NCBI GenBank assembly: GCA_030390025.1
Contig: CM059431.1
Location: forward strand, 143,718,001-143,782,000
From: Squalus acanthias
Lineage: Eukaryota
Length of the DNA stretch: 64,000 nt
Direction of reading: 5' to 3'
Shown here: in pieces, positions 405 through 23,899 of the stretch
Layout of the letters: each line of letters opens with the position of its first letter
How positions within the stretch are numbered: the first letter of the stretch is position 1
Notes under the pieces: generated by a model
What the model saw: only the letters and a program-made list of their open reading frames with translations
What the model was told of the DNA's origin: nothing
Databases searched by the model: none
Made by a program: the position numbers and the translations under genes

Positions 405-965
405 ATGCTCTCCTGGCCAATATCCCATCTTGCAATCTCCGTGAACTTGAGTTCATCCAATAACTCTGTTATCCGTAACCTAACTCCCGCCAAGTCCCGT
501 TCGCTCATCACCCCTGTGCTCGCTCACCTATATTGGCTCCCGGTCAGGCAACACATCGACTTAAAAATTCTCAACTTTTTTTTCAAATGCCTCCATGGCC
601 TCGCCCTTCCCTATCTCAGTTACCTCCGCTCGTCCTACAACTCTCCGAGACCTCTGCACTCTGCCAATTCCGGCCTCTTGCGCTTCCCTGATTCCAGTCG
701 CTCCACCATTGGCATTCGTGCCTTCAGCTGCCGAGGTCCTCAGCTCTCGAATTCCCTCCCTAAACCTCTCCGCTCTCTAACTCTCTCTTTCCCTCTTTAA
801 AACACTCCTTAAAACCTGCCTATTCGATCAAGCTTTTGATCACCTGTCCTATTATCTCATTATGTGTCTTGGTGTTAAATTCTTGTCTGATGACGATCCT
901 GTGGATGTCTTGGACGTTTTATTACATTAAAGTCGATGCTTAAATGCAATTTGATATTGTTGTTG
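405..965 (+). mobile_element. L2-type LINE 3' fragment
   Basis: Encodes ITPVLAHLYWLPV...RAFSCRGPQLSNSLP, typical of the L2 ORF2 C-terminus, and ends in a (ttg)n tail. Confidence 0.8.
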
Positions 966-3900
966 TGTGTGTGTATCCACAGATGCTGAATGTTTGTAGC
1001 ATTTTCTGGTTCTCCTTCACAATTAAAGCAACATAAATGTATTTATTTATTTATTTTCTTCCTATTGCGACTCATAAGGTTTGAAATTATTTAGAAACCC
1101 ATTATAAATAAAAGGCAAATAATCTACTGAATTAATTTTCCTATACTGCCAAGAAGACAATGCACGCCATCTTTAAACGGTGATATTTTATTTTAATATA
1201 GTTTATCATGTTATATTTCAAAACTAAAACGTTGGTTATACAAGGAAAAACTAATAGTTTATTTCAAATACCTATCGACCTATAAATCAGACTGTGGAAA
1301 TCCGAAAACGCACAATCCATTCAGGGTATTGTGTCAATTTGGTAGCAATGATGCACTTGGTAAATGTGTAAAAGGTAATGGAGTAATAAGACTAAATACT
1401 TAAGGAATTGATTCACCTGTAACAGTTATTCGCATCACTAATGACGTTACACAGGCTGATATGACAAGAGAAGATGTATCTGATTTAATAGATGTTGAGA
1501 TTGATATTGTACTGACCAGAGAAGATGTATCTGATTTAATAGATGTTGAGATTGTTATTGTACTGACCAGAGAAGATGTATCTGATTTAGTAGATGATAA
1601 AAGTGCTATTGTACTGACCAGTGAATATGTAACTGATTTAATAGATGGTGAAGGTGCTATTTTACTCACCAGAGAAGATGTATCATTTTGTAGATGGTGA
1701 GAGTGTTATTTCACAGATCAGAGAAGATGTTTCTGAATTAGTAGATGGTGAAGGTGCTATTGTACTGACCAGAGAACATGTATCTGATTTAGTAAATGAT
1801 GAAGGTGCTATTGTACTGATCAGAGAAGATGTTTCTGCTTTAGTAGATGGTGCGGCTGTTATTGTACTGATCAGAGAAGATGTATCTGATTTAGAAAGTG
1901 ATGCAGGTGCTTTTGTACTGACCAGAGAAGATGTTGCTGCATTAGTATATGGCGAAGTTGTTATTGTAATGACCAGAGAATATGTTTCTGATTTAGTAGA
2001 TTTTGAAGTTGCTATTTTACTGACGAGAGAAGATGTATCTGATCTAGTAGAATGTGTGGGTGCTATTGTACTAACCAGAGAAGATGTATCTGATTTAGTA
2101 GATGGTGAAGGTGTTATTGTACTGAGCAGAGAAGATGTATCTCATTTAGTAGATGGTGAGAGTATTATTGTACTGACCAGAGAAGGTGTTTCTGATTTAG
2201 TAGATGGTGAGAGTGTTATTGTACTGAACAGAGAAGGTGTTTCTGATTTAGTAGATGGTGAGAGTGTTATTGTACTGACCAGAGGAGGTGTATCTGATTT
2301 AGTAGATGGTGAAGGTGTTATTGTACTGACCACAGAAGATGTATCTGATTGAGTAGATGGTGAAGGTCCTATTGTACTGACCAGAGAAGGTGTATCTGAT
2401 TTAGTAGATGTTGAGAGTGTTATTGAAATGACCAGAGAAGATGTATCTGATTTAGTAGATGGTGAAGGTGCTATTGTACTGACCAGAGAAGATGGTTCTG
2501 ATTTAGTAGATGGTGAGAGTGTTATTGTACTGACCAGAGAAGGTGTATCTGATTTAGTAGATGGTGAAGGTGCTATTATACTGACCAGAGAAGATGTATC
2601 TGATTTAGTAGATGGTGAAGGTGTTATTGTACTGACCTGAGAAGATGTATCTGATTTAGTAGATGGTGAGGGTGGTATTGTACTGACCAGAGAAGATGCA
2701 TCTGATTTAGTAGATTTTGAAGGTGTTATTGTACTGACCAGAGAAGGTGTATCTGATTTGGTAGATTTTGAAGGTGTTATTGTACTGACCAGAGAAGGTG
2801 TATCTGATTTGGTAGATGGTGAGTGTGTTATTGTACTGACCAGAGAAGGTGTATCTGATTTAGTAGATGGTGAAGGTGCTATTTTACTGACCAGAGAAGG
2901 CATATATGATTTAGTAGATGGTGAATTTGCTATTGCACTGACCAGAGAAGGTGTATCTGATTTAGTATAAGGTGAGGTTGTTATTGTACTGATCAGAGAA
3001 GGTGTATCTCATTTAGTAAATTGTGAAGATTTTATTTTACTGACCAGAAAAGATGTATCTGATTTAATAGATGGTGAAGGTGTTATTGTACGGACAAGAG
3101 AAGATGTATCTGATTTAGTAGATGGTGAAGGTTTTATTGTACTGACAAGAGAAGATGTATCTGATTTAGTAGATGGTGAGAGTGTTATTGTACTGACCAG
3201 AGAAGGTGTATCTGATTCAGTAGATGGTGAGGTGGTTATTGTACTGATCAGAGAAGATATATCTCATTTAGTAAATGGTGAAGGTGTTATATTGTACTGA
3301 CCATAGAAGATGTATTTGATTTAGTAGATGGTGAAGGTCCTATTGTACTGACCAGAGAAGGTGTATCTGATTTAGTAGATGTTGAGAGTGTTATTGAAAT
3401 GACCAGAGAAGATGTATCTGATTTAGTAGATGGTGAAGGTGCTATTGTACTGACCAGAGAAGATGGTTCTGATTTAGTAGATGGTGAGAGTGTTATTGTA
3501 CTGACCAGAGAAGGTGTATCTGATTTAGTAGATGGTGAAGGTGCTATTATACTGACCAGAGAAGATGTATCTGATTTAGTAGATGGTGAAGGTGTTATTG
3601 TACTGACCTGAGAAGATGTATCTGATTTAGTAGATGGTGAGGGTGGTATTGTACTGACCAGAGAAGATGTATCTGATTTAGTAGATTTTGAAGGTGTTAT
3701 TGTACTGACCAGAGAAGGTGTATCTGATTTGGTAGATTTTGAAGGTGTTATTGTACTGACCAGAGAAGGTGTATCTGATTTGGTAGATGGTGAGTGTGTT
3801 ATTGTACTGACCAGAGAAGGTGTATCTGATTTAGTAGATGGTGAAGGTGCTATTTTACTGACCAGAGAAGGCATATATGATTTAGTAGATGGTGAAGGTG

Positions 3901-5169
3901 CTATTGCACTGACCAGAGAAGGTGTATCTGATTTAGTATAAGGTGAGGTTGTTATTGTACTGATCAGAGAAGGTGTATCTCATTTAGTAAATTGTGAAGA
4001 TTTTATTTTACTGACCAGAAAAGATGTATCTGATTTAATAGATGGTGAAGGTGTTATTGTACGGACAAGAGAAGATGTATCTGATCTAGTAGATGGTGAA
4101 GGTTTTATTGTACTGACAAGAGAAGATGTATCTGATTTAGTAGATGGTGAGAGTGTTATTGTACTGACCAGAGAAGGTGTATCTGATTCAGTAGATGGTG
4201 AGGTGGTTATTGTACTGATCAGAGAAGATATATCTCATTTAGTAAATGGTGAAGGTGTTATATTGTACTGACCATAGAAGATGTATTTGATTTAGTAGAT
4301 GGTGAAGGTGCTATTGTACTGACCAGAGAAGATGTATCTCATTTAGCAGATGGTGAAGGTGTTATTGTACTGATCAGAGAAGATGTATCTGATTTAGTAG
4401 ATGGTGAAGGTGCTATTGTACTGATCAGAGAAGATGTATCTGATTTAGTAGATGGTGAAGATTTTATTGTACTGACCAGCGAAGATGTTTCTGATTTAGT
4501 AGATGGTGAAGGTGGTTTTGTTCGGAGCAGAGAAGATGTTTCTGATTTAGTAGATGGTAAGGGTGTTATTGTACTGACCAGAGAAGGTGTATCTGATTTG
4601 GTAGATGGTGAAGGTGCTATTGTACTGATCAGGGAAGGTGTATCTGATTTAATAGATGGTAAAGGTGTTATTGTACTGACCAGAGAAGGTGTATCTGATT
4701 TAGTAGATGGTGAAGGTCTTATTGTACTGACCAGCGAAGATGTTTCTGATTTAATAGATGGTGAAGGTGCTATTGTACTGACCAGAGAAGACATGTCTGA
4801 TTTAGTAGAAGGGGAAGGTGTTATTGTACTGACCTGAGAAGATGTATCTGATTTAGTAGATTGGGAAGGAATTATTGTAATGACCTGAGAAGATTTATCT
4901 GATTTAGTAGAAGGGGAAGGTGTTATTGTACTGACCTGAGAAGATGTATCTGATTTAATAGATGGTGAGAGTGTTATTGCACTGACCAGAGAAGATGTAT
5001 CTGATTTAGTAGATGGTGACGGTGTTACTGTACTGACCAGAAAAGATGTATCTGATTTAGTAGATGGTGAGAGTGTTATTGCACTGACCAGAGAAGATGT
5101 ATCTGATTTAGTAGATGTTGAAGGTTTTATTGTACTGACCAGAGATGGTGTATCTGATTTAGTAGATTG

Positions 5170-5275
5170 TGAGAACAGAGTTAGCTCTCTCCACGGATGC
5201 TGCCTGGCCGCTGAGTCTTTCCAGCGTTTCCTGTTGTTATTTCGGATTTCCAGCATCCGCAGTATTTTGCTATCG
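5170..5275. mobile_element. ~100-bp short interspersed (Penelope-type) repeat fragment inserted in the 51-bp array, copy 1
   Basis: The array is interrupted by ...ccacggatgctgcctggccgctgagtctttccagc...ggatttccagcatccgcagtattttgc. The same tail recurs at ~41420-41452. Confidence 0.75.
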
Positions 5276-6549
5276 TATCTAATTTAGTAGATGATAAAGG
5301 TGCTATTATACTGACCAGTTCAGATGTATTTGATTTAGTAGATGGTGAAGGTGCTATTGTACTGACCAGTGAAGATGTATGTGATTTAGTAGATGGTGAG
5401 GGTGTTATTTTACTGACCAGAGCAGATGTATCTGATTTAGTAGTTGATGAAGATGTTATTGTGCTGACCAGAGAAAATGTATCTGATTTGTTAGATGAAT
5501 AAGGTGTTATTGTACTGACCAGAGAAGGTGTATCTGATTTAGTAGATGGTGAGGGTGTTATTTTACTGACCAGAGCAGATGTATCTGATTTAGTAGTTGG
5601 TGAAGTTGTTATTGTGCTGACCAGAGAAAATGTATCTGATTTGTTAGATGAATAAGGTGTTATTGTACTGACCAGAGAAGGTGTATCTGATTTAGTAGAT
5701 GGTGAGGGTGTTATTTTACTGACCAGAGCAGATGTATCTGATTTAGTAGTTGATGAAGATGTTATTGTACTGACCAGAGAAAATGTATCTGATTTGTTAG
5801 ATGAATAAGGTGTTATTGTACTGACCAGAGAAGGTGTATCTGATTTAGTAGATGGTGAGGGTGTTATTTTACTGACCAGAGCAGATGTATCTGATTTAGT
5901 AGTTGGTGAAGTTGTTATTGTACTGACCATAGAAGGTGTTTCTGATTTAGTAGATGGTGAAGGTGCTATTGTACTGACCATGGAAGGTGTTTCTGATTTA
6001 GTAGATGGTGAAGGTGCTATTGTGTCAACTAGAGAAGGTGTATCTGATTTAGTAGATGGTGAAGGTGCTATTGTACTGACCAGAGAAGATGTATCTCATT
6101 TAGTAGATGGTGAGAGTGTTATTGCGCTGACCAGAGAAGATGTATCTGATTTCGTAGGTGGTGAAGGTGCTATTCTACTGCCCAGAGAAGATGTATCTGA
6201 TTTAGTAGATGGTGAAGGTGTTATTGTACTGACCAGAGAAGATATATCTGATTTAATAGATGGTGAAGGTGCTTTTGTACAGACCAGAGAAGGTGTATCT
6301 GATTTAGTAGATGGGGAAGGTGTTATTGTACTGACCTGAGAAGATGTATTTGATTTAACAGATGGTGACGGTGTTATTGTACTGACCAGAGAAGATGTGT
6401 TTGATTTAGTAGAAGGGGAAGGTGTTATTGTACTGACCAGAGAAGATGTATCTGATTAGTAGATGGTGAGAGTGTTATTGCACTGACCAGAGAAGATGTA
6501 TCTGATTTAGTAGATGTTGAATGTTTTATTGTATCTGATTTAGTAGATT

Positions 6550-6655
6550 GTGAGAACTGAGTTAACTCTCTCCACGGATGCTGCCTGGCCGCTGAGTCTT
6601 TCCAGCGTTTTCTGTTGTTATATCGGATTTCCAGCATCCGCACTATTTTGCTGTC
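6550..6655. mobile_element. Same ~100-bp inserted repeat, copy 2
   Basis: Near-identical to 5170-5275, with the same left junction (gatttagtagattgtgagaac). Confidence 0.75.
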
Positions 6656-7326
6656 GTATCTGATTTAGTAGATGGTGAAGGTGCTATTATACTGACAAGT
6701 AAAGATGTATCTGATTTAGTAGATGGTGAAGGTGCTATTGTACTGACCAGAGAAGATGTATCTGATTTAGTATATGGTGAAGGTGCTATTGTACTGACCA
6801 GTGAAGTTGTATCTGATTTAGTAGTTGTTGAAGATGTTATTGTACTGACCAGAGAAAATGTATCTGATTTGGTAGATGAATAAGGTGTTATTGTACTGAC
6901 CAGAGAAGGTGTATCTGATTTAGTAGATGGTGAAATTGTTAAGGATTGACCAGAGAAGATGTATCTGATTTATTAGATGTTCGATGTGCTATTGTACTGA
7001 CCAGATAAGATGTATCTTATTTAGTAGATGGTGAAGTTGTTATTTTTACTGACCAGAGAAGATGTTTCTGGAATAGTAGTTGGTGAAGCTGTTTTTGTAC
7101 TTACCAGACATGATCTATCTGACTTAGTAGATGGTGAGATTGTTATTGCACTGACCATAGAAGGTGCATCTGATTTAGTAGATGGTGAAGGTGCTACTCT
7201 TCTCATCAGGGAAGAAGAATCTATGCTTAAAGATATTGAGCTGCTATTGAAATTGGGAGATGATGTTTCTGAATTAATAGATGATGAAGCTGTTACTCTA
7301 CTGGCCTGGGGATGATGTATCCTGAT

Positions 7327-10300
7327 TTAGGAATGATGAACGTGCTGTAGTACGGACCTGAATGTTGTAGCCTGATTAGTAGATGAGAGTGGTACTATAT
7401 TGAACTGGGATAGCGTAGCCTGATTAATAGATGATGATGGTGCTGTATTGATCTGGGATGGTGTAATCTGATTTATAGATGATGGTGATGCTGTATTGAC
7501 CTGGGATGGTGTAATCTGATTTATAGAGGATGATGGGGCTGTATTGACCTGGGATGGTGTAATCTGATTTATAGATGATGGTGGTGCTGTATTGACCTGG
7601 GATGGTGTAATCTGATTTATAGATGATGGTGGTGCTGTATTGACCTGGGATGGTGTAGTCTGATTTATAGATGATGTTGGTGCTGTATTGACCTGGAATG
7701 GTGTAGTCTGATTTATAGATGATGCTGGTGCTGTATTGACCTGGAATGGTGTAGTCTGATTTATAGATGATGATGGTGCTGCATTGACCTGGGATGGTGT
7801 AGTCTGATTTATAGAGGATGATGTTGTTATATTGACCTGGGATGGTGTGGTCTGCTTTATAGATGATGAACGGACTCTAGCACTGTCCTGCGATGTTTTA
7901 GATACCGCAAAAGTTAATGTCGACGCTGAATTTAAAGCCGGAAGCAGCATTGGTCTCATAGTGACAGCTGATGACTGTTGCATGGTTCTACCTGTCAGGG
8001 AGGGTGGAAACACATTGTTGTTTTCGGTCGATGATGGGGCCCTTGCCTTGTTGGAAGACGGAGGCACATTCACACTGTACAAGCTGGGCACACTCGCACT
8101 GCTCACGATAGGCACAGTCTCACTGGTCACAATGGGCACACTCGCACTGCTCACGATAGGCACAGTCTCACTGGGCACGGTGGGCACAGTCTCACTGTTC
8201 ACGATGGGCACAGTCCCACTGTTCAAAATGGACATCGTTTCACTGGTCACGATGGGCACAGTCTCACTAGTCACGTTGTGCACAGTGTCAATGGGCACGA
8301 TGGGCAGAGTCTCACTGGTCACGATGTGCACCGTCTCAGTGATCACGATGGGCACAGTCTCACTGGGCACGATAGGCAAAGTCTCACTGGTCACGATGGG
8401 GACAGGCTCAGTTTTCACGATGGGCACACTCGCACTCCTCACGATTGGCACAGTCTCACTGGTCATGATGGGCACCGTGTCAATTTTTACGATGGGCACA
8501 GTCTCACTGGTCACGATGGGCACAGTGTCACTGGTCACGATGGGCACAGTGTGAGTGGTCACGATGGGCACAGTCTCACTGGTCACGATGGGCACAGTGT
8601 CACTGGTCACGATGGGCACAGTGTGAGTGGTCACGATGGGCACAGTCTCACTGGTCACGATGGGCAGAGTCTCAGTGGTCACGATGGGCACAGTCTCACT
8701 GGTCACGATGGTCACAGTCTCACTGGTCACAATGGGCACAGTCTCACTTGTCACGATGGGCACAGTCTCAGTGGTCACGATGGTCACAGTTTCACTGGTC
8801 ACGATGGGCACAGTCTCACTGGGCACGATGGTCACAGTCTCACTGGGAACGATGGGCACAGTCTCACTGGTCACGATGGGCACAGTCTGAGTGTTCACGG
8901 TGGGCACAGTCTCACTGGGCACGATGGGCACAGTCTCACTGGTCACGATGGGTACAGTCTCACTGGTCACTATGGGGACAGTCTCAGTGTTCACGATGGG
9001 CAAAGTCTCACTGGTCACGATGGGCACAGTCTCACTGGTCACGATGGGGACAGTCTCAGTGTTCACGATGGGCCAAGTCTCACTGGTCACGATGGGCAGA
9101 GGCTCACTGGTCACGATGGGCACAGTCTCACTGGTCACGATGGGCAAAGTCTCACTGGTCACGATGGGCACAGTCTCACTGGTCACGATGGGCACAGTCT
9201 CATTGGTCACGATGGGTACAGTCTCACTGGTCACGATGGGCACAGCATCAGTGTTCACGATGGGCACAGTGTCACTGGTCACGATGGGCACAGTCACAGT
9301 GTTCACGATGGTGACGGTCTCACTGGTCACGATGTGCACAGTCTCAGTGTTCACGATGGGCACAGGCTCACTAGTCACGATGTGCTCAGTCTCAGTGTTC
9401 ACGATGGGCGCAGTCTCACTTGTCACGATGGGGACAGTCTCAGTGGTCACGATGGGTACAGTCTCACTGGTCACGATAGGCACAGTCTCAGTGGTCACGA
9501 TGGGCACAGTCTCACTGGTCACGATGGGTACCGTCTCACTGGTCTCGATGGGCAGAGTCTCAGTGGTCACGATGGTCACAGTCTCACTGGTCACGATGGG
9601 CACAGTGTCAGTGGTCACGATGGGCACAGTCTCACTGGTCACGATGGCCACAGTCTCACTGGTCACGATAGGCACAGTCTCACTGGTTACGATGGGCACA
9701 GTCTCACTGGTCACGATGGGCACAGTCTCAGTGGTCACGATGGGCACCGTCTCACTGGTCACGATGGGCACAGTCTCACTGATCACGATGGGTACAGTCT
9801 CAGTGGTCACGATGGGTACAGTCTCACTGGTCACGATGTGCACAGTCTCAGTGGTCACGATGGGTACAGTCTCACTGGTCACGATGGGCACAGTCTCAGT
9901 TGTCACGATGGGTACAGTCTCAGTGGTCACGATGGGCACATTCTCACTGGTCACGATGGGTACAGTCTCAGTGGTCACGATGGGTACAGTCTCACTGGTC
10001 ACGATAGGCACAGTCTCAGTGGTCACGATGGGTACAGTCTCAGTGGTCACGATGGGCACATTCTCACTGGTCACGATGGGCACAGTGTCACTGGTCACGA
10101 TGGGCACAGTGTCAGTGGTCACGATGGGGACAGTCTCACTGGTCACGTTGGGCACAGTCTCACTGGTCACGATGGGCACAGTCTCACTGGTCACGATGGG
10201 CACATTCTCACTGGTCACGATGGGTACAGTCTCAGTGGTCACGATGGGTACAGTCTCACTGGTCACGATAGGCACAGTCTCAGTGGTCACGATGGGTACA

Positions 10301-11483
10301 GTCTCAGTGGTCACGATGGGCACATTCTCACTGGTCACGATGGGCACAGTGTCACTGGTCACGATGGGCACAGTCTCAGTGGTCACGATGGGGACAGTCT
10401 CACTGGTCACGTTGGGCACAGTCTCACTGGTCACGATGGGCACAGTCTCACTGGTCACGTTGGGCACAGTCTCACTGGTCACGATGGGCACAGTCTCACT
10501 GGTCACGATGGGCACAGTCTCACTGGTCACGTTGGGCACAGTCTCACTGGTCACGATGGGCACAGTCTCAGTGGTCACGATGGGGACAGTCTCACTGGTC
10601 ACGTTGGGCACAGTCTCACTGGTCACGATGGGCACAGTCTCACTGTTCACGATGGGCACAGTCTCACTGGTCACGATGGGCACAGTCTCACTGGTCACGA
10701 TGGGTACAGTCTCACTGGTCACGATGTGCAAAGTCTCACTGGTCACGATGGGCACAGTCTCACTGGTCACGATGGGTACATTCTCACTGGTTACGATGGG
10801 CAGAATCTCCATGGTCACGATGGGCACAGTTTCACCGGTCACGACGGCTACAGTCTCACTGGTCACAATGGGCACAGTCTCAGTGGTCACGATGGGCACA
10901 GTCTCACTGATCACGATGGGCACAGTCACACTGATCACGATGGGCACAGTCTCACTGGTTACGATGGGCACATTCTCACTGTTCACGATGGGCACAGTCT
11001 CACTGGTCACGATAGGCACAGTCTCACTGGTTACGATGGGCACATTCTCACTGTTCACGATGGGCACAGTCTCACTGGTCACGATAGGCACAGTCTCACT
11101 GGTCACGATGGGCACAGTCTCACTAGTCACGATGAGCACAGTCTCACTGGTCATGATGGGAATGGTCACACTGGTCATGAAGGGCACAATCGCACTGATC
11201 CAAGAATCCATAATTGTGGATAAACTGGAAGCCACTAAGGATGCTGTAGAAGTTGGAGGCTGGGCTGTTGAACTGGGCTGTTGACCTGATCTACCAAGGG
11301 AAGAGGAGGTTTCCATTGATGCAGGGTGATTGGGCGATCGAGGCGCAGTTGAACTTCTCATGGACGTGGTTGTACTTTTGATGCGGTGGTTCACAATCCT
11401 GGAGTTGATAGAAAGTGGATTCTGGGATTCGCTGAGCGTCGGCAGCCCATTGGTCGCGGAATGCGCTCTGGTCATAGTTGTCA
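7327..11483 (-). CDS. Giant mucin-like (PTS-rich) exon, probable final coding exon of the cobalamin-binding protein gene
   Basis: Strong acceptor TTGTTTCTCCTACTTTGCACAG (AG at 11484-85), phase 1 and in frame with exon 6. The frame is open to TAA at 7327-29 and encodes ~1385 aa dominated by TSETVPIV and QVNTAPSSSINQITPS repeats. The link to exon 6 is inferred from phase and adjacency. Confidence 0.72.
7360..7870. repeat. 48-bp coding tandem repeat (QVNTAPSSSINQITPS on minus strand), ~10 copies
   Basis: Unit tgtattgacctgggatggtgtaatctgatttatagatgatggtggtgc. Confidence 0.93.
8090..11190. repeat. 24-bp coding tandem repeat (TSETVPIV on minus strand), roughly 125-130 copies
   Basis: Unit cactggtcacgatgggcacagtct, repeated with no frame-breaking indel. 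Confidence 0.97.
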
Positions 11484-11564
11484 CTGTGCAAAGTAGGAGA
11501 AACAATGTCAATAGATTATTGGAGGCAACGGGCAGTAAAGTTGGACATGGGCGAAGACGGAAAA

Positions 11565-11720
11565 CTGGGGGAATCACATTTGCCAACCGTTTTGCAACAC
11601 GCCTGATATTCGGTTCTGTTGGAAATAGTGGAATGAATATCGGGGTTTATAAAGAAAGAAACGGGCGACCGATGACATACCGTCGGTTTTGCGGCCCTGC
11701 TCTTGTCGAATTTCACCCAC
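11565..11720. mobile_element. Palindromic MITE-like short repeat
   Basis: Similar to 12496-12674: acacgcc(t/c)gatattc...gaatatcgg...gttttgcg...tgtcgaatttcacc. Confidence 0.55.
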
Positions 11721-12039
11721 AACTTCTGGAGACACGCTCAGAATCAGCGCATGTGAAAAGTGGAGCTCAGGCACAAACCAGCTCTGCATTCCAGTTAGTG
11801 CGACCATTGTCATATGTGAAGATCCCTGAGGATATCTACATTGGTGAACCTCCCGCTGGGAGTGAGGCCAAGCAGATGGCTCAGGGCGTCCAATTATTTC
11901 ACTTAGAAAACTGAGCAAACATAAAGGATTCAGGAAGGTCAAGGTGTGAATGGGTAAAATCCCAGCTTCAGTGCTCCTGGCAAATACCCTGGAGAAAATA
12001 TCATGAAACTGGACGGTGATTTAAAACTAACAGACGATG

Positions 12040-12260
12040 AATTGTTATGATCTGGAATGCACTGACTGAAAGTGTGGTGGAAGCAGATTCAAAGTCATTT
12101 CAAAGGGGATTTAGATAAATATTTATAGAGGAAAACTGCAGGACTATGGGGAGAGGGCAGGGCACTGGAACTAATTGGATTGCTCTTTCGAAGCGCCGAC
12201 ACAGGCACTATGGGTCGAATGGCCTCATTCTACACTGTTTCCTTCCATGATTCATTTCCA
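12040..12260 (+). mobile_element. CR1-type LINE 3' end fragment
   Basis: tggaatgcactg...gtggtggaagcagattca...ggg(t)cgaatggcct 3' end motif. Confidence 0.7.
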
Positions 12261-12495
12261 TTGGCTATTTCTTCTGCATTTTGATTCCTAACCCCATGCG
12301 AGTAGCTTCCCATCTGTACAGCCTGGGAGCAGCGCATCCAGGAAATTCTTGATCTCAGCTTTGCATTCTGGGAACGGAACCTGCCCGATTTTCCTTCCGT
12401 TATTTTCGTTGCAGCTTCTGTTCGGGCCGTGTAACCTTCCCGTCACATTCTCCCTTATTTACCCCGCCTATGCAGCTCTTAAAGCTGAGAGGCGT

Positions 12496-12674
12496 GGTGA
12501 AATTCGATGGGGATGGGGACGCGACACAGGAGGAATCGCTCTCACCAACCATTATATACACGCCCGATATTCAGTTCTTTTGAAGTCAATTGGACCGAAT
12601 ATCGGGCGGAGCGGATATCGGACGCCTGATGCGACACCGTTCGTTTTGCGACCTCGCCAATGTCGAATTTCACC
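12496..12674. mobile_element. Palindromic MITE-like short repeat
   Basis: Terminal inverted repeat ggtgaaattcga/tcgaatttcacc and internal palindrome cgcccgatattc...gaatatcgggcg. Related cores lie at ~15970, ~22340, ~26480 and ~34140. Confidence 0.6.
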
Positions 12675-12713
12675 GTCTCCCATACTTAGTCCGGTCTGTT
12701 GCTGTACCCTTAC

Positions 12714-12900
12714 CTTTATATACAGGACAGGTTATCTTGTTCACGTCCAGGTAACTCTTTCCTCCCAGGGCTATCGCCACCTGTGACATTGTTGTAAGGT
12801 TTTCCCAGTTTCCCCGAGAAATTTCTTGCACCATTTTCTGCACAGACTTGGTGCAATTATAGACACGTGAGGTGAACACGTTTATGTTTTCGTCCAGGGC
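12714..12900 (-). CDS. Cobalamin-binding protein gene, exon 6 (end of alpha domain)
   Basis: CAG acceptor and GTAAGG donor; 187 nt, phase 0-1. Translates ALDENINVFTSRVYNCTKSVQKMVQEISRGNWENLTTMSQVAIALGGKSYLDVNKITCPVYK, matching the family pattern AL...NC...EI..G..N....Q....L.GK.YLDV..+TC. Confidence 0.93.
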
Positions 12901-13144
12901 CTGGAGTGTAAAGAAGGTAACAATATTTTGAATATTCAATGTTAATGATCCGGAGATCATTTAGTGTGAGCACATATGAACTCTGTTTCAAAGCTCTGTA
13001 GCATAAAGTGGGAGTCATTGGAAATAAAAATCGGGAGAGATCGGGCTGCAGATTCGTCATCACCCATTTTACACCATCGCACAAACTCAAATCCTACCCC
13101 ACGTGCGTTCTGACCAGGGTACAGTTTAGATTAGATTGCAGTGT

Positions 13145-13440
13145 GGTGAGACCACACTTCGAGTATTGTGAATAGTCCTGGTCCGGTGAGACCACACTTA
13201 GAGTATTATGAATAGTCCTGGTCTGGTGAGACCACACTTAGAGTATTGTGAATAGTCCTGGTCTGGTGAGACCACACTTAGAGTATTGTGAATAGTCCTG
13301 GTCTGGTGAGACCACACTTACAGTATTGTGAATAGTTCTGGTCTGGTGAGACCACACTTAGAGTATTGTGAATAGTTCTGGTCTGGTGAGACCACACTTA
13401 CAGTACTGTGAATAGTTCTGGTTTAGACCACAATTAGAGT
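13145..13440 (+). repeat. 40-bp tandem repeat (~7 copies) derived from CR1 RT sequence
   Basis: Unit gtgagaccacacttagagtattgtgaatagtcctggtctg corresponds to the CR1 VRPHLEYC...WS segment. Confidence 0.9.
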
Positions 13441-13597
13441 ACCGTGCACTGCTCTGTTCTCCATATTACTAAAAGGAAGTAAAGGCACATCTCGAAGGTG
13501 CAATAAAAATATTGGCAATGATTATACCAGAATTCTGTGGTTATAACTATTAGGAAAGTTTTATCAGTTTGGGTGTTTTTCTATAGAAAAGAGAAGG

Positions 13598-15420
13598 GAA
13601 CCCAAAAATCTTCTACCAGCATGTAAACACTAAGCGGGTAGTAAGAGGCGGGCTGGGGCCTATTAGGGACAAAGAAGGTGATATATGCTTAGAGGCGTAG
13701 GGTAAGGCTAGAATACTCAAATAGTACTTTGTATCGGTGTTTACTAAAGAGGTGGATGCTGACAAAATATCGGTAGAAGTGGAAAAGGTAGAAGCAATGG
13801 AAGGGGTGAACATTGATAGACAGGACCTACTAGAAAGACAGGGTATGCTGCGAGTGGATAAGTCGCCTGGTCCAGATGGCTTGCATCCCAGGTTGCAAAG
13901 GGAATTGGGGGAGGATATAGCAGAAGGGCTTGCCATAATTTTCCAATCTTCGCTAGATGCGGGGGAGTTGCCTAAGAATTGGAAAATGGCAAATGTGACA
14001 ATATTGTTCAAGAAAGGGTTTAAGGACAATCCAAGTAACTATAGGTCGGTCAGTTTAACATCAGTGGTGGGTTACGTTTTAGAAACAATACTCAAGGAAA
14101 AAATTAACGGGCAACGAGTGGTTTAACCTAATTAAGGAGAGCCTACACGATTTGTAAAAGGCAGATCATGTTTCACTAATCTAATTGAAATTTTTGATGA
14201 AGTAACAGGGAGGATTGATAAAGGGAATGTAATGGATGTTGTCTACATAGATGGCTGGTTAACAAAATTGAGTTTCATGGATTAGATGGGTCAGTGGCAG
14301 CTTGGATAAGGAATTGGCTTAAGCACAGAAAACCACGAGTTGTGGTAAATGGCTATTTTTGAGACTGCAGGATGGTAGACAGTGGTGTTCCCCAAGGGTC
14401 AGTGCTGGGGCCACTGCTTTTCTTGATATATATAAATGACCTGAATATTGGAATACAAAGTAGAATTTCTAAATTTGCTGATGACACCAAACTTGGCGGG
14501 GGAGGGGTGGGGGTGGTGTGGCAAACAGTGAGGATGATACCAATCGGCTGCAACAGGACATAGAAAGGCTAGCAGAATGGAAAGTGAAGTGACAGATGGA
14601 ATTTAATACAGAGAAGTGTGAGGTGATGCATTTTGGCAGAAGGAACAGGGAAAGGCAATATACACTTAATGGCACAATCTTAAAGAGTGTGCAGTGACCC
14701 AGGGACGTGGGGGTTAATGTCATAGGTCCCTGAAGGTGGCAGGACATATTGAGAGAGTGGTTAGCAATGCCAATGTGATTTTGGGCTTCATAAATAAAGG
14801 TATTGAGCACAAAGGTAGAAAAGTTATGCTCAGCCTCTTTAAGGCGCTGGTTAGACCACAACTGGTGTATTGCATCCAGTTGTGGTCACCAAAGTTTAGG
14901 ATGGATATGAAGGACCTTGAGAAAATGCAGAGGAGATTTACCAGAATGGTTCCGGGGATGGGGGATCTTAGCTACAAGGACAGTTTGGAAAAGCTGGATT
15001 TGTTTTCATTAGAGCAAAGGAGGTTGAGGGATGATTTGATGGAGGTTTACAAGATTATGACGGGTTTGGATAGGCTAGACGGGGAAAGGCTTATCCCACT
15101 AGGTGATGATACAAGGACCAGGGGACAACGATTTAAGGTTTTGTGCAAGAGGTACAAGGGGGATGTGAGGAAAAAAAAATTTATGCGGCGAGAGGCGAAG
15201 ACCTGGAATTCGCTGCCGACGAAAGTTGTGGAAGCGGAGACACTCAATGCTTTCACGGGGAGACTGGGTAGGCATTTGATGGAATAAACTTGCAGGGCTA
15301 CGGGGATGGAGCGGGGGAATGGGACTGACTGGATTGCTCTACAGAGAGCCGGATTGGACTCGATGGGCCGAATGGCCTCGTTTTGTGCCGTTATGTCTCT
15401 ATTAATCTTTGATTCTATTA
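13598..15420 (+). mobile_element. Degenerate 5'-truncated CR1 LINE (RT), nested in an older CR1 fragment (13440-13597 and 15421-15780)
   Basis: [36 protein letters not shown] and WNSLP motifs with stops and frameshifts. The host CR1 resumes at 15421. Confidence 0.9.
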
Positions 15421-16365
15421 CTGAAAGGTGAACTAAAAGAGGTCTTCAAAATTATGAAAGGATTTGATAAGGTAAACGTAGAGAAGATGTCTCCACTTGC
15501 AGGGTGAGTCCAAAACTAGGGTCCATACATATAAGATCGCCACTCATAAACCCAACAAGGAATTTAGGAGAAACTTCTTAACGAGAGAGTGGATAGAAAT
15601 TGTAACTCGCTATCACAAGGAGTAGCAGAGGAGGCGAATAGCAAAGATTGATTTAAGGGAAATCTACATGAAGGAGAAAGGAATAGAAGGATATGGTGAT
15701 AGGGTTAATAGGGCGGGAGGAGCCTCGTGTGGCCCACAAACACACGAAAGGCCTGTTTCTGTACTGAACATTCCATTTAAAGATTGTCCTCTTTGAATTT
15801 GAAGTCAACTAGTTTCTCAATATAACAAAACCATCCTGTTTACATTGCTTATCGTCACTTCAGTGTATTGATTTAATGAGCATTGAGTCATTCGCTTTCT
15901 TTTGTGGTAACTTTAACTTTGAGCGATGATGCACAATGGCCAATTTTGAATTAACCGCCCATTGTATACCACGCCCGATTTTCCTTTGCATTGAATCCAT
16001 GGAAGGTAAAATCTGGCGCCTGTAAATTAGAGAGCAATTGGATATTACCCATTTTACACCTTCACCAAAAGTTAAAATCACCCCTTAAATCTATTTCAAC
16101 CAATGCCCTCCGCTCCTGGCGAGTTCTATCCCATGAAAGATATCGAGGTGTCTCAGAATCTTCCAACAGGCTGTATTTTGCATTGCTTCACACTGAACGT
16201 CATCTGAACACATTAAGCACCGATACACCAATATGGCAATATCGTTTCTATGCTCTAATTGTTTATGGTCCATCGCTTAATATGTTGCGAAGAAGCTGTT
16301 AATTACTAACTGCCCTTAGCGCTAATTAAACTAGAAACCTATTTTCTAATTTCACATCACCATAC

Positions 16366-16541
16366 CTGCATGGCCAGCCCTGTACTGCTCAAGCTCCCAA
16401 TGGTCCCGTCCTCTCTCACTTCACTTAGAATCCGCCTCATTATCCACATTAATGCCTTTGCGATGTCAAGCCGAGATCTGCCTCTTGGTTGTTGCGAGTG
16501 TATCCAACACCTCAGACTAAGTGCCGCGGTGGCCATTGTAT
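16366..16541 (-). CDS. Cobalamin-binding protein gene, exon 5 (alpha domain)
   Basis: TAG acceptor and GTATGG donor; 176 nt, phase 1-0. Translates (D)TMATAALSLRCWIHSQQPRGRSRLDIAKALMWIMRRILSEVREDGTIGSLSSTGLAMQ, matching the VDTxAMAxLALxC and DGxIGxxxSTGLAMQ family signatures. Confidence 0.93.
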
Positions 16542-16669
16542 CTACAACACAGGAAACAATTACCATCGGTTCATGGAGTAAATTTGACAGGAGGGTCGGT
16601 AACGAGAGGACACAGATGTACGATATTGACAAAAGATCCTGAGGGGACATGGGGAGTCATTTTTATTTT

Positions 16670-16900
16670 TTATGCAGCGAATATAACCTGGAATGGACTG
16701 CCTGAACGGGGGGTGGAAGCAGATTCAATGGTGACTTTAAAAAGGGAATTTGATATATACTTGATAAGGATACAAATACAGGGTTATGGCCTATGGGGAA
16801 AGAGAAGGGAGAGTGGGATTAATTGGGGAGCTATTTCAAAGAGCCTCCACAGGTAAGATGGGCCGACATGCCTCCTTCTGTAAGTTTGGCTGATTCTATG
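16670..16900 (+). mobile_element. CR1-type LINE 3' end fragment
   Basis: Encodes WNGLPERGVEADS...KREFDIYL, followed by the 3' UTR motif. Confidence 0.75.
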
Positions 16901-17274
16901 ATGTCCGAAGCCGACAAGGCACGAGCGATCCGAGAACCCATTGATGAAGAGACGCTTCCCAAATTTCCAATCATTTTACTCACAGCCGGTGACCAATGGA
17001 CTCCATCCAGCACAAGTTTACCAATCATTGATTGCAGTGACACGGCCTTGTCCCGAAACAGAACTGTACGGGTCTTAGCTAGAAATTGAATTGGGGGTAA
17101 TGGGGACAAGACTGAGATTATGAAATGCTACTTGTAATAAAACATGCAAGGGGTGAAATGGCATTTGGGCGGGAAATCAATTCAGGCGAAATCGCATTTT
17201 ACGAGCGTTATTTAGTTCTATTGGCCGTTTTGCGGCCCCGCCCAGGTCCAATTACAGCGCCCACACTTCTCCAA

Positions 17275-17635
17275 TCGTAACCTGTGAACCCAGGTAACCA
17301 CTTTCAAAACTCCATCAAATGGATATCTTCAACAATCGTAACCCGTGAACCCAGGTAACCTCCTTCAAAATTCTAGCAAATGGATATCTTCACCGACCGT
17401 GACCTGTGAACCCCGGTAACCTCTTTCTAAAACTCCATCAAATGGATATCTTCACTGACTGTAACCTGTGAACACCGGTAACCTCTTTCTAAAACTCCAT
17501 CAAATGGATATCTTCCCCGACCGTAACCTGTGAACCCGGGTAACCTCGTTCAAAACTCCATCAAATGGATATCTTCACTAACCGTAACCTCTGAACCCGG
17601 ATAACCGCTTTCAAATCTCCCTCAAATGGATATTT
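17275..17635. repeat. ~60-61-bp tandem repeat, ~6 copies (intron 4)
   Basis: Unit cgtaacctgtgaacccaggtaacctctttcaaaactccatcaaatggatatcttcacc. Confidence 0.9.
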
Positions 17636-17676
17636 TAGAAATTATAAATTGAAACGTCTTGTCTGCTCAGACACAC

Positions 17677-17832
17677 CTACAGTTAATTCTTTCCCGTGTT
17701 GAGCGATCTTCCTGAGATGAGCCCGGATGAAATTATGAATGAGAAAGCCCGGGACAGGTTCCTCCTCCTGACACAGCGCCAGGATCGCCAGGCTGGCTTC
17801 AGTAAAGGCCTTGAGAGAATATCCAGCGTTTT
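17677..17832 (-). CDS. Cobalamin-binding protein gene, exon 4 (alpha domain)
   Basis: CAG acceptor and GTGTGT donor; 156 nt, phase 1-1. Translates NAGYSLKAFTEASLAILALCQEEEPVPGFLIHNFIRAHLRKIAQHGKELTV; SLAILALCQ is the intrinsic-factor-type motif. Confidence 0.92.
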
Positions 17833-18284
17833 CTGTAAATACAGTGACAGACTCCAATGTTAGTGATGTGCTCCACATCTGAATAACGGGAACAACAGAT
17901 GTGAGAATTCCTCACTAGTTCGTTCTCGATCATCTCTGTGTGCCAGAAATCAGGCCAAGGATTTAAATGAATTAAATAGAATTGGTGTAGAATTTACAGC
18001 ACAGAAGGAGGCTTTTCGGCCCAACAGGTCTAATTATGCTCCACATGAACCTTACTTCATCTCACTGGAGCAGCTTACCCGAGGGAGCAATTCCTTTCTC
18101 CTTCGTGACCTTGTCTAACTTCGCCTTAAATACATCTATACAATTCGCCTCAACTTCTCCTGTGCTATCAAATTCCACATTCTCGCCACTCTATCGGGAA
18201 AATAAGTTTCTCCTGAATCCCCCATTGTTTTTAGTACTGACTCTACAGCGGACTACTGCTCTCCAGCATGGTTATCCAATCCAC

Positions 18285-21200
18285 ATGATTATGGAGAGAG
18301 GTACAGACTGAGCTGTGAGTGCAATTGGAATTTATGGGGACAGGTACAGACTGAGATGTGAGTGTAATTGGAATTTATGGGGACAGGTACAGACTGAGAT
18401 ATGAGTGTGATTGGAGGTTATGGGGACAGGTACAGACTGAGATATGACTGTGATTGGAGGTTATGGGGACAGGTACAGACTGAGATATGAGTGTGATTGG
18501 AGGTTATGGGGACAGAGACAGACTGAGATATGAGTGTGATTGGGGGTTATGGAGAGAGGTGCAGACTGAGATGTGAGTGTGATTGAAGGTTATAGGGACA
18601 GGTACAGGCTGAGATATGAGTGCGATTGGAGTTTATGGGGACAGTTACAGACTGAGATGTGAGTTTGATTGGAGGTTATGGAGAGAGGTACAGTCTGAGA
18701 TCTGAGTGTGATTCCTCGTTATAGTGACAGGTACAGACTGAGTTGTGAGTGTGATTGGAGGTTATGGAGAGAGGTACAGTCTGAGATGTGAGTGTGATTC
18801 CTGGTTATGGGGACAGGTACAGACTGAGATGTGAGTGTGATTCCTGGTTATGGGGACAGGTACAGACTGAGATGTGAGTGTGATTCCTGGTTATGGGGGC
18901 AGGTACAGACTGAGATATGAGTGTGATTGGAATTTATGGGGACAGGTACAAACTGAGATATGATTGTGATTGGAGGTTTTGGGGACAGTTACAGACTGAG
19001 ATGTGAGTTTGATTGGAGGTTATGTGGACATGTACAGACAGAGATATGAGTGTGATTGGAGGTTATGGGGACAGGTACAGAATGAGATGTGAGTGTGATT
19101 GGAGGTTATGGGGACAGGTACAGACTGAGATATGAGTGTGATTGGAGGTTATGGGGACAGGTACAGACTGAGATATGAGTGTGATTGGAGGTTATGGGGA
19201 CAGGTACAGTCTGAGATGGGAGTGTGATTGCTGCTTATTGAGAGAGGTACAGACTGAGATGTGAGTGTGATTGGAGGTTATGTGGACAGGTACAGAATGA
19301 GATATGAGAGTGATTGGAGTTTATGGGGACAGGTACAGACTGAGGTATGAGTGTGATTGGAATTTATGGAGACAGGTACAGACTGAGATGTGAGTGTGAT
19401 TCCTGGTTATTGGGACAGGTATAGACTGAGATGAGAGTGTGATTGCTGGTTATGGAGACAGGTACAGACTGAGATGAGAGTGTGATTGGAGGTTATGGGG
19501 ACAGGTACAGACTGAGATGTGAGTGTGATTGGAGGTTATGGGGACAGGTACAGACTGAGATGTGAGTGTGATTCCTGGTTATGGAGACAGGTACAGTCTG
19601 AGATGTGAGTGTGATTGGAGGTTATGGGGACAGGTACAGACTGAGATGTGAGTGTGATTCCTGGTTATGGGGACAGGTACAGTCTGAGATGTGAGTGTGA
19701 TTCCTGGTTATGGGGACAGGTACAGACTGAGATGTGAGTGTGATTCCTGGTTTTGGAGACAGGTACAGTCTGAGATGTGAGTGTGATTCCTGGTTATGGA
19801 GACAGGTACAGACTGAGATGTGAGTGTGATTCCTGGTTATGGAGACAGGTACAGACTGAGATGTGAGTGTGATTGGAGGTTATGGGGACAGGTACAGACT
19901 GAGATGTGAGTGTGATTGGAGGTTATGGGGACAGGTACAGACTGAGATGTGAGTGTGATTGGAGGTTATGGGGACAGGTACAGACTGAGATGTGAGTGTG
20001 ATTGGAAGTTATGGAGAGAGGTACAGACTGAGATGTGAGTGTGATTGGAGGGTATTGTGTGAGGTACAGACTGAGATGTGAGTGTGATTGGAGGTTATGT
20101 GGACAGGTACAGAATGAGATATGAGAGTGATTGGAGTTTATGGGGACAGGTACAGACTGAGGTATGAGTGTGATTGGAATTTATGGAGACAGGTACAGAC
20201 TGGGATGGGAGTGTGATTACAGGTTATGGAGAGAGGTACAGACTGAGATGTGAGTGTCATTCCTGGTTATGGGGACAGGTATAGACTGAGATGTGAGTGT
20301 GATTGGAGGTTATGTGGACAGGTACAGACTGAGATATGAGTGTGGTTGGAGGTTATGTACACAGGTACAGACTGAGATATGAGTGTGATTGGAGGTTATG
20401 TGGACAGGTACAGACTGAGATATGAGTGTGATTGGAGGTTATGTGGAAAGGTACAGACTGAGATATGAGTGTGATTGGAATTTATGGGGACAGGTACAAA
20501 CTGAGATATGATTGTGATTGGAGGTTATGAGGACAGTTACAGAATGAGATGTGAGTGTGATTGGAGGTTATGTGGACAGGTACAGACTGAGATGTGAGTG
20601 TGATTCCTGGTTATGGGGAGAGGTACAGACTGAGATGTGAGTGTGATTCCTGGTTATGGGGAGAGGTACAGACTGAGATGTGAGTGTGATTCCTGGTTAT
20701 GGGGACAGGTACAGACTGAGATGTGAGTGTGATTCCTGGTTATGGGGAGAGGTACAGACTGAGATGTGAGTGTGATTCCTGGTTATGGGGACAGGTACAG
20801 ACTGAGATGTGAGTGTGATTCCTGGTTATGGGGACAGGTACAGACTGAGATGTGAGTGTGATTGCTGGTTATGGGGACAGGTACAGACTGAGATGTGAGT
20901 GTGATTCCTGGTTATGGGGACAGGTACAGACTGAGATGTGAGTGTGATTCCTGGTTATGGAGCGAGGTACAGACTGAGATGGGAGAGTGGTTGGATGTTA
21001 TGGAGAGAGGTACAGACTGAGATGTGAGTGTGATTGGAGGTTATGGAGAGAGGTACAGACTGAGATGTGAGTGTGATTGGAGGTTATGGGGTCAGGTACA
21101 GACTGAGATGTGAATATGATTGCTGGTTATGGGGACAGGTACAGACTGAGATATGAGTGTGATTCCTGGTTATGGGGACAGGTACAGACTTAGATGTGAG

Positions 21201-21460
21201 TGCGATTGCTGGTTATGGGGACAGGTACAGACTGAGATGTGAGTGTGATTCCTGGTTATGGCGACAGGTACAGACTGAGATGTGAGTGCGATTGCTGGTT
21301 ATGGGGAGAGGTACAGACTGAGATGTGAGTGTGATTGCTGGTTATGGGGAGAGGTACAGATTGAGATGTGAGTGTGATTCCTGGTTATGGGGACAGGTAC
21401 AGACTGAGATGGGACTGTGATTGGAGGTTATGGAGAGAGGTACAGACTGAGATGTGACTG
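18285..21460. repeat. 43-bp minisatellite, ~74 copies (intron 3)
   Basis: Unit gagatgtgagtgtgattggaggttatggggacaggtacagact, with an alternating attcctggtt variant. Confidence 0.97.
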
Positions 21461-21548
21461 TGTTTGTTGGTTTTCAGCTTGTGTTTGCTGAAAGATGCTT
21501 CTCAATCTCTATGCAAATAACATGGCTAAAGTATGAGTCTACATTTAC

Positions 21549-21719
21549 CTTTAGAAGTTGTTATCCTAGGTATGTGATGCAGTTCACTGTACAGCCTCTC
21601 ATGTAGCATCTCCACCAAATTCACCTCCTTGTTCCCTGCCGATATCTTGGCGGAGTTCCGACAAGAGGATCTGAAGGCTAAGATGTGGTAAACCAACTGG
21701 TCTATGGGGAAGTGTTCAC
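21549..21719 (-). CDS. Cobalamin-binding protein gene, exon 3 (alpha domain)
   Basis: Not in the ORF track. Pyrimidine tract plus CAG acceptor and GTAAAT donor; 171 nt, phase 1-1. Translates EHFPIDQLVYHILAFRSSCRNSAKISAGNKEVNLVEMLHERLYSELHHIPRITTSK, matching the GQLxLxIxALxSSC family motif. Confidence 0.88.
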
Positions 21720-22699
21720 CTGGCGGCAGAGGAACAAACGAGATTCAGTTTGTTCTGACTGGGTCCATCAATACCTAACTGGTTAGTGATTATAAATTCC
21801 TCTTCTGCACTCTGAAGACTTGTATTAATATTCCACCTTATTCTAACTCTCAAAGTGCTTCAAGTACAATAAATTATTTGAAGTGCAGCTACCCTTGTTA
21901 TATCGACCAATTCGGGAGCCATTTTGTGGACAGTCATATCCCACAAACAGCACTGAAGTAGTTAACCAGTTCTAAATTCTTAACTAGCGACACGGTAAAT
22001 GGATTAACTGGTAATGTATTTCATTGGTACTTGTGACATCTTGTGTCCAATTGGTTGTCGAGGTTGTCTATGAAAGAAGAGTGGCTGCATTTCATTGGCT
22101 GTGAAGCAAATGCACGACAGAAATGTAAGTTTCTCCCTCTTCACTCTCCTCTCTCTTTAAACTACTTTGGGTGTTAGCTGGGGAATAAATGTTGGCCAAG
22201 TCCCCGGCAGCATTCTCCCTTCTTGTTCCAATAAAGCCGTGTCAGCTTCAAATTCCACAAGAAAAGATTCTGGGGATAATTTTAGATTCAGACGATATTG
22301 TAAAATAGGCGACACCGAATTGGCCTCCGATTAAAGATCCCGCCCGATTTTCACCTACATTGCAATGGAAAATCAAGCGTGGTGTAAAAGGGCAGCTGAT
22401 GCAACTTAGAGCAGGGGACAGTGTAATGATTTCTGATTTCAAAACAACGAGAGAGCAAGAAGCAGAACCACCGTGCAGGATGGGGGAATATAGGGTTTAG
22501 GTGGAAGAACATCGGAATGTTTAGACCTGCGAAATAATTTCCATAATAGTATCATGAACAAAGGTGGTGCAATAAATGACTGCTCGGCCCATTCACCTGA
22601 GGGCAGAATTCCAGCGAGAAGTCTCCCTCCCTCCCTCTCTTCATCTTCCTCTGTATGTGTCAGTTTCCCTCTTTCTCCATCTCACTCTTTCTCTTCCTC

Positions 22700-22701
22700 A
22701 A

Positions 22702-22733
<32 letters not shown>

Positions 22734-22955
22734 GTACAGACTCGGATATATATGTACACACATACACATATAAACACTTTCAGACACGTATACACACACA
22801 GACACACATATGCATACAGAAGCACAGACACACAGAAACGCAGAGACATACACACACACAATCGCAAAGAAACCCACAGAAAGATATACACAAAGAAACA
22901 TGGAAACACACACACACATATACATATACACACAAACACACACACACATATACAG
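22700..22955. repeat. Degenerate (CA)n/(TACA)n microsatellite
   Basis: Low-complexity CA-rich run. Confidence 0.9.
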
Positions 22956-23645
22956 AAACTTCAATGGCACATTGCTGCAAATTAATCCCTGGGATCTTGA
23001 TTCAAATGGTTGTGAAATTGTAGACTGTAATAAAATGAACTGCACTGGGGAAAAGAAGGAGAATCGCATGAGGTGTGTGAACTTTCAACATTGGCTCTCA
23101 CAAAATAGGCGCCACCGACAGTCATATTAGCTGCTATTTTTAAATTACCCTGTTTATTTTAAATGGACGAAATCCTCTATTCGGAACATTGGAATTGCTG
23201 GGGTGACTAAAGACAAAGGTGCCTCTAATTCTTCGTCTACCATCCTTGTAGTCGCATGATACAATGACATTGAGGTTGTTGTATAATCATCGTAATCAGT
23301 CTCTATAAATTAGTTTATAACAGACACAGACACGAGGCGAGGAATACCCGGTGCTGGAGAGCTTTGTGAACCATAGATACAAAATCACCTGTTCCTCCCA
23401 AGCACGCTACACTGACCATGTGTAAAGTCTCAAATTACACATATACTCTATCTCAAATGTTACGTTTTAATGTCAAACAGAGCAATACGACATGAACGGG
23501 CTAGAAGTTGGGTCACTATTATCATGGGGCCATTTCTAGGTTCCAATTTCCTTCATTAACAATAGTTTGCCAGCCACTCATCCTGTCAACAGTAATAAAG
23601 ATTTTATCCAGATACATCCACATTACCTAATAGTTGACTCCTTAC

Positions 23646-23828: not shown

Positions 23829-23899
23829 CTGGAATCCACAACCCAATTATTAATCCACTCGCGTGTAATGAACATTAAGATAGCAGTAACACTTAAAGA

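Follow-up and report, generated by a model that had tools for sequence, protein, structure and literature searches.

The described systems closest to the gene considered here, a predicted mucin-like gene on the minus strand of a 64,000-nucleotide stretch of Squalus acanthias DNA (GenBank assembly GCA_030390025.1, contig CM059431.1, positions 143,718,001 to 143,782,000; hereafter the window, whose own coordinates are used throughout), each resemble it in part. The cobalamin carriers TCN1, TCN2 and CBLIF and the skate protein Tcn3 share with it the alpha domain PF01122, and the accessible part of the report on chondrichthyan carriers describes them, three skate proteins included, as having alpha and beta domains (PMC4350170); unlike TCN1, TCN2, CBLIF and Tcn3, the gene has no beta domain that could be found in the window. 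The last exon of CEL is similar in joining a globular domain to a repeat tail in one exon, and in its variable number tandem repeat (VNTR), according to the accessible part of that paper, single-base changes cut the tail and distal insertions are tolerated or benign (PMC11102595). The CEL VNTR as described there is short, however, with changes that are polymorphic or somatic, whereas at our locus the cut appears old and shared, and an abandoned array of 5.7 kb has kept duplicating. The gain of mucins by exonic repeats with a high content of proline, threonine and serine (PTS repeats), as presented in the main text of PMC9417175, is likewise an addition of such repeats to an existing protein with lineage-specific change in copy number; that text treats mammals and gain, and contains no match for 'premature', 'stop codon', 'pseudogen' or 'untranslated', whereas the shark locus shows the loss side. 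A literature search with subscription journals outside its coverage found nothing on the locus or its family. We argue that the 5.9 kb behind the present stop codon are, on balance, probably the no longer translated far end of a terminal mucin-type exon, in one member of a multi-copy shark and ray family that lacks the beta domain, and that an old one-base cut was followed by minisatellite turnover.

Six small exons and one large exon on the minus strand would splice, with AG/GT boundaries, into an open frame of 1,699 codons, and the gene is predicted to encode a secreted mucin-like protein of 1,699 aa, an alpha domain followed by a mucin-type PTS tail of long tandem repeats within one exon. 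Its parts are as follows.

25030-25099, minus strand: exon 1, signal-peptide-like (MPPVMTLTLL..., judged by eye), with a phase-1 donor
12714-23828, minus strand: exons 2 to 6, the alpha domain of a cobalamin binder (PF01122 match), with an open spliced frame and AG/GT ends; the exons lie at 23828-23646, 21719-21549, 17832-17677, 16541-16366 and 12900-12714, in phases 1, 1, 1, 0 and 1
7327-11483, minus strand: coding part of exon 7, a PTS tail of 1,384 residues that ends at TAA 7329-7327
8063-11197, minus strand: 24-bp coding array of about 130 units
7309-7869, minus strand: 48-bp coding array of about 11 units

All five exon frames of exons 2 to 6 matched PF01122, in model order, and the acceptor of exon 7 at 11483 is in phase 1, after the phase-1 donor of exon 6. 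Proline, threonine and serine together make up 46% of the 1,384 aa of the coding tail, whose stop-free frame is closed by the TAA. The alpha domain appears intact; the TNYYQ motif of cobalamin carriers aligns with KAFTE in the window protein, for which cobalamin binding is putative. We note that intron 3 is mostly filled by a 43-bp minisatellite of about 74 copies (18289-21466), and that introns 4 and 5 hold further arrays of 61 and 40 bp.

Behind the stop, two stretches of repeat DNA continue on the same strand.

7048-7326, minus strand: junction, 93 untranslated PTS-like codons in hybrid units of 48- and 51-type
1462-7193, minus strand: 51-bp array of 111.8 copies, non-coding today

Past two indels, at 7360 and 7305-7311, the first frame resumes as QASRVTASSSINSETSS for 93 codons, and the consensus of the 51-bp array is SDTSSLVSTITPSPSTK. 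It is most likely that this array was once a coding continuation of the PTS exon, because its unit is homologous to the coding 48-mer, differs from it by whole codons and has P, T or S at 12 of its 17 codons. The two units align with a score of 62, which was reached by none of 5,000 shuffles, while for seven further arrays from the window the score does not exceed 26; the differences between the units, of -1, +3 and +1 bases, keep a whole number of codons, both units steer clear of the TAA-bearing frame, and the P/T/S count of the 51-mer was matched by only 2 of 5,000 base shuffles. A first reading of the window, made from its letters alone (the sequence-only reading), had taken the array for a decayed former coding PTS extension, and this appears likely from the homology of the 48- and 51-mers and from the lesions described below. 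The minus-strand features that it named (the TAA at 7327, the resumed frame, the 51-bp array, the ending ...MRITVT, CAG/GTGAAT, the TAA at 1400 and the AATAAA sites) all lie where it placed them.

The exon region behind the stop is not coding today. Eight in-register stops occur among the 106 regular units of the array (at 7019, 6098, 4341, 4237, 3982, 3266, 3011 and 2144), seven of them TCA-to-TGA changes at the first codon and the one at 7019 a TAA, and there are ten frameshifts with a net of +5, eight in the array and two at the junction. These 18 lesions fall in 5,944 nt; four are copies made by duplication, which leaves at most 14 independent events, whereas no lesion lies in the 4,123 nt on the upstream side (P about 6e-4). 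In a set of 80 non-duplicated units, obtained by leaving out the rows with the insert, copy two of the 971-bp block and seven of the units that make up the 153-bp repeat, stops arose at a rate of 1.8 per opportunity, missense transversions at 1.75 and silent transversions at 1.18.

The order in which the frame was lost can be approached through the two indels of the junction and through other copies of it.

7359-7360, minus strand: missing base, which shifts the last 11 codons and brings in the TAA; apparently younger, or private to the window copy
7305-7311, minus strand: extra base, apparently an older, shared truncating change, which alone ends the frame at TAG 7300-7298

For 6930-7450, the contigs of 4 out of the 17 listed sequencing runs were compared with the window at 85% likeness, in alignments of which 41 rows of letters and 4 of indels are not displayed. 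X1 is the best-matching run, about 55% of which was read; X14 comes from another organism and X10 from another shark, and summed contig depth was not used as a copy number. The base at 7359/7360 is present in both X1 contigs that cover it (records 7 and 8; 289.8 of 289.8 depth). Each has one gap, the restored base, and retains the extra base at 7305-7311; the two differ from the window by a further 6 and 3 letters respectively, and are probably sister copies or alleles. All six differing letters of record 7 are listed and none lies at the TAG, which puts the end of this copy's frame at 7300. Record 27 of X14 runs without a gap from 7112 to 7360, at 21 differences in 249, and the first letter of its loose end is the base that is missing at 7360; record 30 is also ungapped across 7305, keeping the extra base, and two other X14 contigs (50.6 of 196.5 depth) are without one base at 7305. 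The sequence-only reading had named absence of the 51-bp array from relatives as evidence that would count against it; what we find is that two related sharks carry the same junction and 51-bp units. At 7255 there are five contigs with junction variants in X10 and seven in X14, and several variants per run fit a multi-copy family. On the simplest reading the extra base would be old and shared, and the base missing at 7360 a late loss or an assembly error. Both indels flanking the TAA are present relative to the repeat register, as had been proposed, but the downstream one occurs by itself in other copies, so that they are not a single compensated pair. With an old, shared extra base, up to 14 lesions would have built up in the array and none in the frame upstream, which would place the shortened gene under selection. 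Gap-free junction contigs in relatives were dropped as a sign of such selection, indels being rare in the array anyway; very high depth at 7416-7450 was ignored as probably a simple-repeat match; and, none of the 17 runs being listed as RNA, X13, guessed to be RNA, contained only 51-mer-like pieces with no cover over 7200-7379, from which no conclusion on expression or on the mRNA end is drawn.

Correcting the junction does not restore the exon. Assembly error cannot open it, because each correction still meets stops: restoring 7360 alone leads to TAG 7300, and fixing both indels leads to a shift near 7045 and then to TAA at 7023 or 7019. The possible assembly indels that had been singled out for checking, at 7305-7360 and near 7045, were compared with the contigs and the exon stays closed, the extra base near 7045 being carried, with no gap, by X1 record 5. 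Two reverse-transcriptase frames of long interspersed nuclear elements (LINEs) elsewhere in the window, at 42991-44874 on the plus strand and 53117-54895 on the minus strand, are open for 627 and 592 codons and look like young copies; such long open frames are a sign of accurate assembly. A tentative extension, which we regard as rather unlikely, is that translation continues into the 51-bp array in certain sister copies or relatives, giving a protein of about 3,000-3,700 residues, while others stop near 7300, the array then being a growing non-coding reserve that could be recovered by exchange between copies. Long and short forms that differ by one base at the 48/51 junction would yield X14 contigs with and without the extra base, as were seen.

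The array went on changing after it had begun to decay.

2349-4290, minus strand: tandem duplication of a 971-bp block (4290-3320 and 3319-2349), with 5 differences in 971
6556-6655, minus strand: foreign 100-nt insert, copy 1, which replaces 26 nt of a unit and shifts the frame
5175-5274, minus strand: foreign insert, copy 2, with 6 differences in 111 nt from copy 1 and flanks shared over about 370 nt
5436-5894, minus strand: 153-bp higher-order repeat of three units, in three copies with 3 and 2 differences in 153 (98-99% alike)

Both copies of the 971-bp block hold the same +2 shift and two TGA. Growth of the array after the lesions amounts to at least 1.3 kb, about 1.6 kb of growth is recent, and losses are uncountable. 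An ancestral exon of about 10 kb, as the sequence-only reading had it, does not survive this result: with at least 1.3 kb duplicated after the lesions arose, about 10 kb is today's sum and gives no ancestral exon size. The insert, which has a partial third match at 41448-41419 (27 of 30), may be the end of a common shark interspersed repeat. No target-site duplication is visible around it, and it resembles filler DNA left where a break was repaired; three X1 contigs contain the insert, with a consensus unlike both window copies, and other gene copies may share it.

At its far end the array gives way to unique sequence, and with it to signals that may mark either the end of the old reading frame or a splice site.

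1411-1419, minus strand: donor-like CAG/GTGAAT (1417/1416), putative, a consensus match
1400-1402, minus strand: in-register TAA lying five codons past the donor-like site, a candidate for the ancestral stop
918-1263, minus strand: AATAAA sites at 1263, 1192, 1055/1051/1047 and 923, candidate 3' end
6969-6974, minus strand: AATAAA within the array, the first to follow today's stop, an alternative candidate for the present-day 3' end

The unique sequence reads ...MRITVT ahead of CAG/GTGAAT, which lies 45 nt past the end of the array, and loose ends of X10 contigs match this unique end, which is therefore present in another shark, but stop short of the GT. Four separate AATAAA sites fall within 500 nt after the TAA at 1400, against three in the 13.5 kb from 11484 to 25030; T-rich DNA follows those at 1263 and 1055, and eight more AATAAA lie inside the 51-bp array.

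In the history that we favour, the tail would once have run from 48-bp units into the related 51-bp units and most likely on to the TAA at 1400, with a short 3' untranslated region (UTR) carrying the poly(A) signals. An old one-base insertion at the junction would then have cut the tail at TAG 7300, a stop seen in one sister-copy contig, its age being suggested by its sharing with another shark. The shortened gene was presumably kept under selection, as the clean upstream frame suggests, and the freed array would have turned into a minisatellite, in which stops, indels and a foreign insert accumulated and blocks were duplicated, the lesions being plain to see and unequal exchange being the likely mechanism. 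Later the base at 7360 would have been lost, or an assembly slip would have removed it, with an effect on the last codons only, and the array today would be 3' UTR or downstream flank.

Several observations weigh against parts of this history. The X1 records extend only 17-20 letters past the indels on one side, which is short of the 31 letters of the bridging rule; X10 record 14 spans both indel places with two gaps that could not be located, so that this species may or may not have the base at 7360; and in X14 the two contigs that lack the extra base could be either open copies or array units put in the wrong place. Another 51-bp array, unrelated to this one, at 58097-60027, which reads IPPSLIPTSCSLPITVN and has a frameshift near 59560-59630, is open for 518 codons on the minus strand with 47% P/T/S and shows no sign of a gene context, so that period and openness alone prove little; this array is useful as a control for chance mucin-like frames. 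No relative that translates the 51-mer was found in a protein search with six array units among proteins of 180-2,000 aa; the sole pass among 8,000 scored candidates, the metagenome protein P0096, was rejected as an unrelated chance repeat. Substitutions in the array keep no trace of purifying selection, which is as expected if most change postdates the cut. The proteins of relatives are all automatic models, in which exons may be missed. At the array end, the DNA past 1400 is 70% A+T, for which a rough estimate gives about one AATAAA by chance, and the chance of an in-phase donor-like site in a unique tail of 60 nt is roughly 1-4%, a point in favour of a real donor.

The best surviving alternative, although we consider it rather unlikely, builds on that last point: the region is a fossil coding exon whose donor at 1417/1416 was genuine and led to a small non-beta exon or to several, or the exon was composite, either splicing or reading on to the TAA at 1400 and being polyadenylated. 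The site has a good consensus, is in phase 1 in the repeat register and outscores the donor of exon 1, and since reading on past the phase-1 donors of this gene likewise soon meets a stop, the TAA at 1400 is no proof of an old stop. The distance from 11483 to 1417 is 10,067 nt (2 mod 3), which comes to 0 mod 3 after correction for the net +5 that the ten frameshifts add, and the site is in phase 1 only in the local repeat register. With a crude six-donor matrix, however, GT sites that score as high number 33 of 3,563 on the minus strand and 45 of 4,212 on the plus strand, that is 78 in 128 kb of both strands or about 0.6 per kb, AATAAA is dense behind 1417/1416, unlike in the gene's introns, and no downstream exon was identified in 1-1400. 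Support from the donor score is real but modest and after the fact. The phase-1 donor of the sequence-only reading therefore stands as to its consensus and as to its phase after lesion removal; it rises only modestly above chance, and the TAA at 1400 with the AATAAA sites fits a terminal exon at least as well, so that we favour, though not strongly, an old terminal exon over a donor.

It is also conceivable, but we think improbable, that the 51-bp array was never translated, the protein always having ended near 7300 and the array being a 3' minisatellite seeded from the last, diverged coding units. This would agree with an out-of-frame junction common to copies in two species at a divergence of at least 8%, with the C-rich strand of the window's shark minisatellites, which can read as P/T/S, and with the lack of both a selection signal and, in the 180-2,000 aa search, an open 51-mer protein. 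It is difficult to reconcile with three indels between the 48- and 51-mer that keep whole codons and a stop-free PTS frame, with a junction open for 93 codons in the same register and with the two X14 contigs that are without the extra base.

A more ambitious proposal, that a phase 1-1 exon of about 10 kb lay in the alpha-beta linker and was spliced to beta-domain exons, now appears very doubtful. The phases fit such a linker exon once the lesions are removed, a shark paralogue that is less closely related shows a linker expansion with the beta domain kept, ...RITVT bears a faint likeness to the first beta strand in canonical carriers, and whatever lies beyond position 1 is outside the window read. 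The paralogue (P0010, Heterodontus francisci) belongs to another clade, its linker holds a short T/L/P/S repeat expansion and its beta domain is retained. ITVT as a remnant of a beta strand found no profile support and was set aside, as was the Pfam beta model PF14478, which matched 1 of 9 proteins and missed P0010, which has a beta domain. With a beta profile built from the C-terminal 125 residues of 39 of 95 proteins (60 of the 95 carry a beta domain), a six-frame search of the window gave no beta domain (best E 2.9), although exons 2 to 6 were recovered by the alpha profile. Nor did the automatic models P0001, P0002, P0003 and P0049, or P0005 and P0006 of the sister clade, contain a beta domain, so that neither the window nor these six models of the clade and its nearest relatives lend support to splicing to beta-domain exons. 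None of 86 alpha-domain relatives is longer than 993 aa, the linker of canonical carriers runs straight into the beta domain whereas nothing beta-like follows the array, and at least 1.3 kb of the array postdates its lesions.

The relatives point instead to a loss of the beta domain before the tail grew. In a 32-row tree the window protein groups with Mustelus P0001 and Narcine P0003 (support 100/100), and the sister clade, of Pristiophorus and Hypanus, is alpha-only (support 96/93). The Narcine bancroftii protein (P0003, XP_069792302.1, 'mucin-2-like') is 59% identical over the alpha domain and has a PTS tail of 627 residues and no beta domain; the tail differs from that of the window gene in being, by eye, without 24-, 48- or 51-bp units. 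The Mustelus asterias models XP_078087635/6 ('cobalamin binding intrinsic factor-like') are 69% identical over the alpha domain and end soon after exon 6 without a tail, and a Chiloscyllium ab initio model has a partial alpha domain, a tail like that of Narcine and no beta domain. An alignment of the start of the window tail with the Narcine tail (score 62) is of low complexity and was not counted. A protein query with exon 6 gave none of 4 candidates and one with exon 5 gave 1 of 112, this search being insensitive enough to have missed the Narcine protein. P0005, P0006 and P0091-P0095, from a sawshark and two stingrays, make up a sister clade of short alpha-only models with neither beta domain nor tail.

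An exon that is still open, with lesions that are mere mistakes of assembly, has next to no likelihood, for although several indels lie in short base runs and the window's state at 7360 occurs in 0 of 2 X1 contigs, a restored 7360 meets TAG 7300, the eight stops are due to substitutions, read errors explain neither the insert nor the duplicated lesions, and 4.1 kb of upstream repeats are free of error.

Elsewhere in the window, an NLR gene at 47005-48917 on the minus strand shows NACHT, winged-helix and HD2 domains over three overlapping frames and is probably a frameshifted pseudogene, and two 222-bp copies at 38359-38785, 97% alike, hold an open frame of 169 codons on the plus strand.

For annotation, the gene model should place the end of the protein at 7327, or else ten codons further on, and treat the 5.9 kb that follow as non-coding repeat DNA. 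The locus gives no support to a giant alpha-mucin-beta carrier of vitamin B12, and it carries a warning that the present length of a dead array is not the size of the ancestral exon. Under the history favoured here, it would be a record of the shortening of a mucin tail, in which a single base cuts, the gene persists and turnover goes on in the abandoned array, which is an ordinary fate for mucin repeats. If it is true that long and short forms coexist in the family, they would make the switching of tail length open to test in a group of shark genes not described before.

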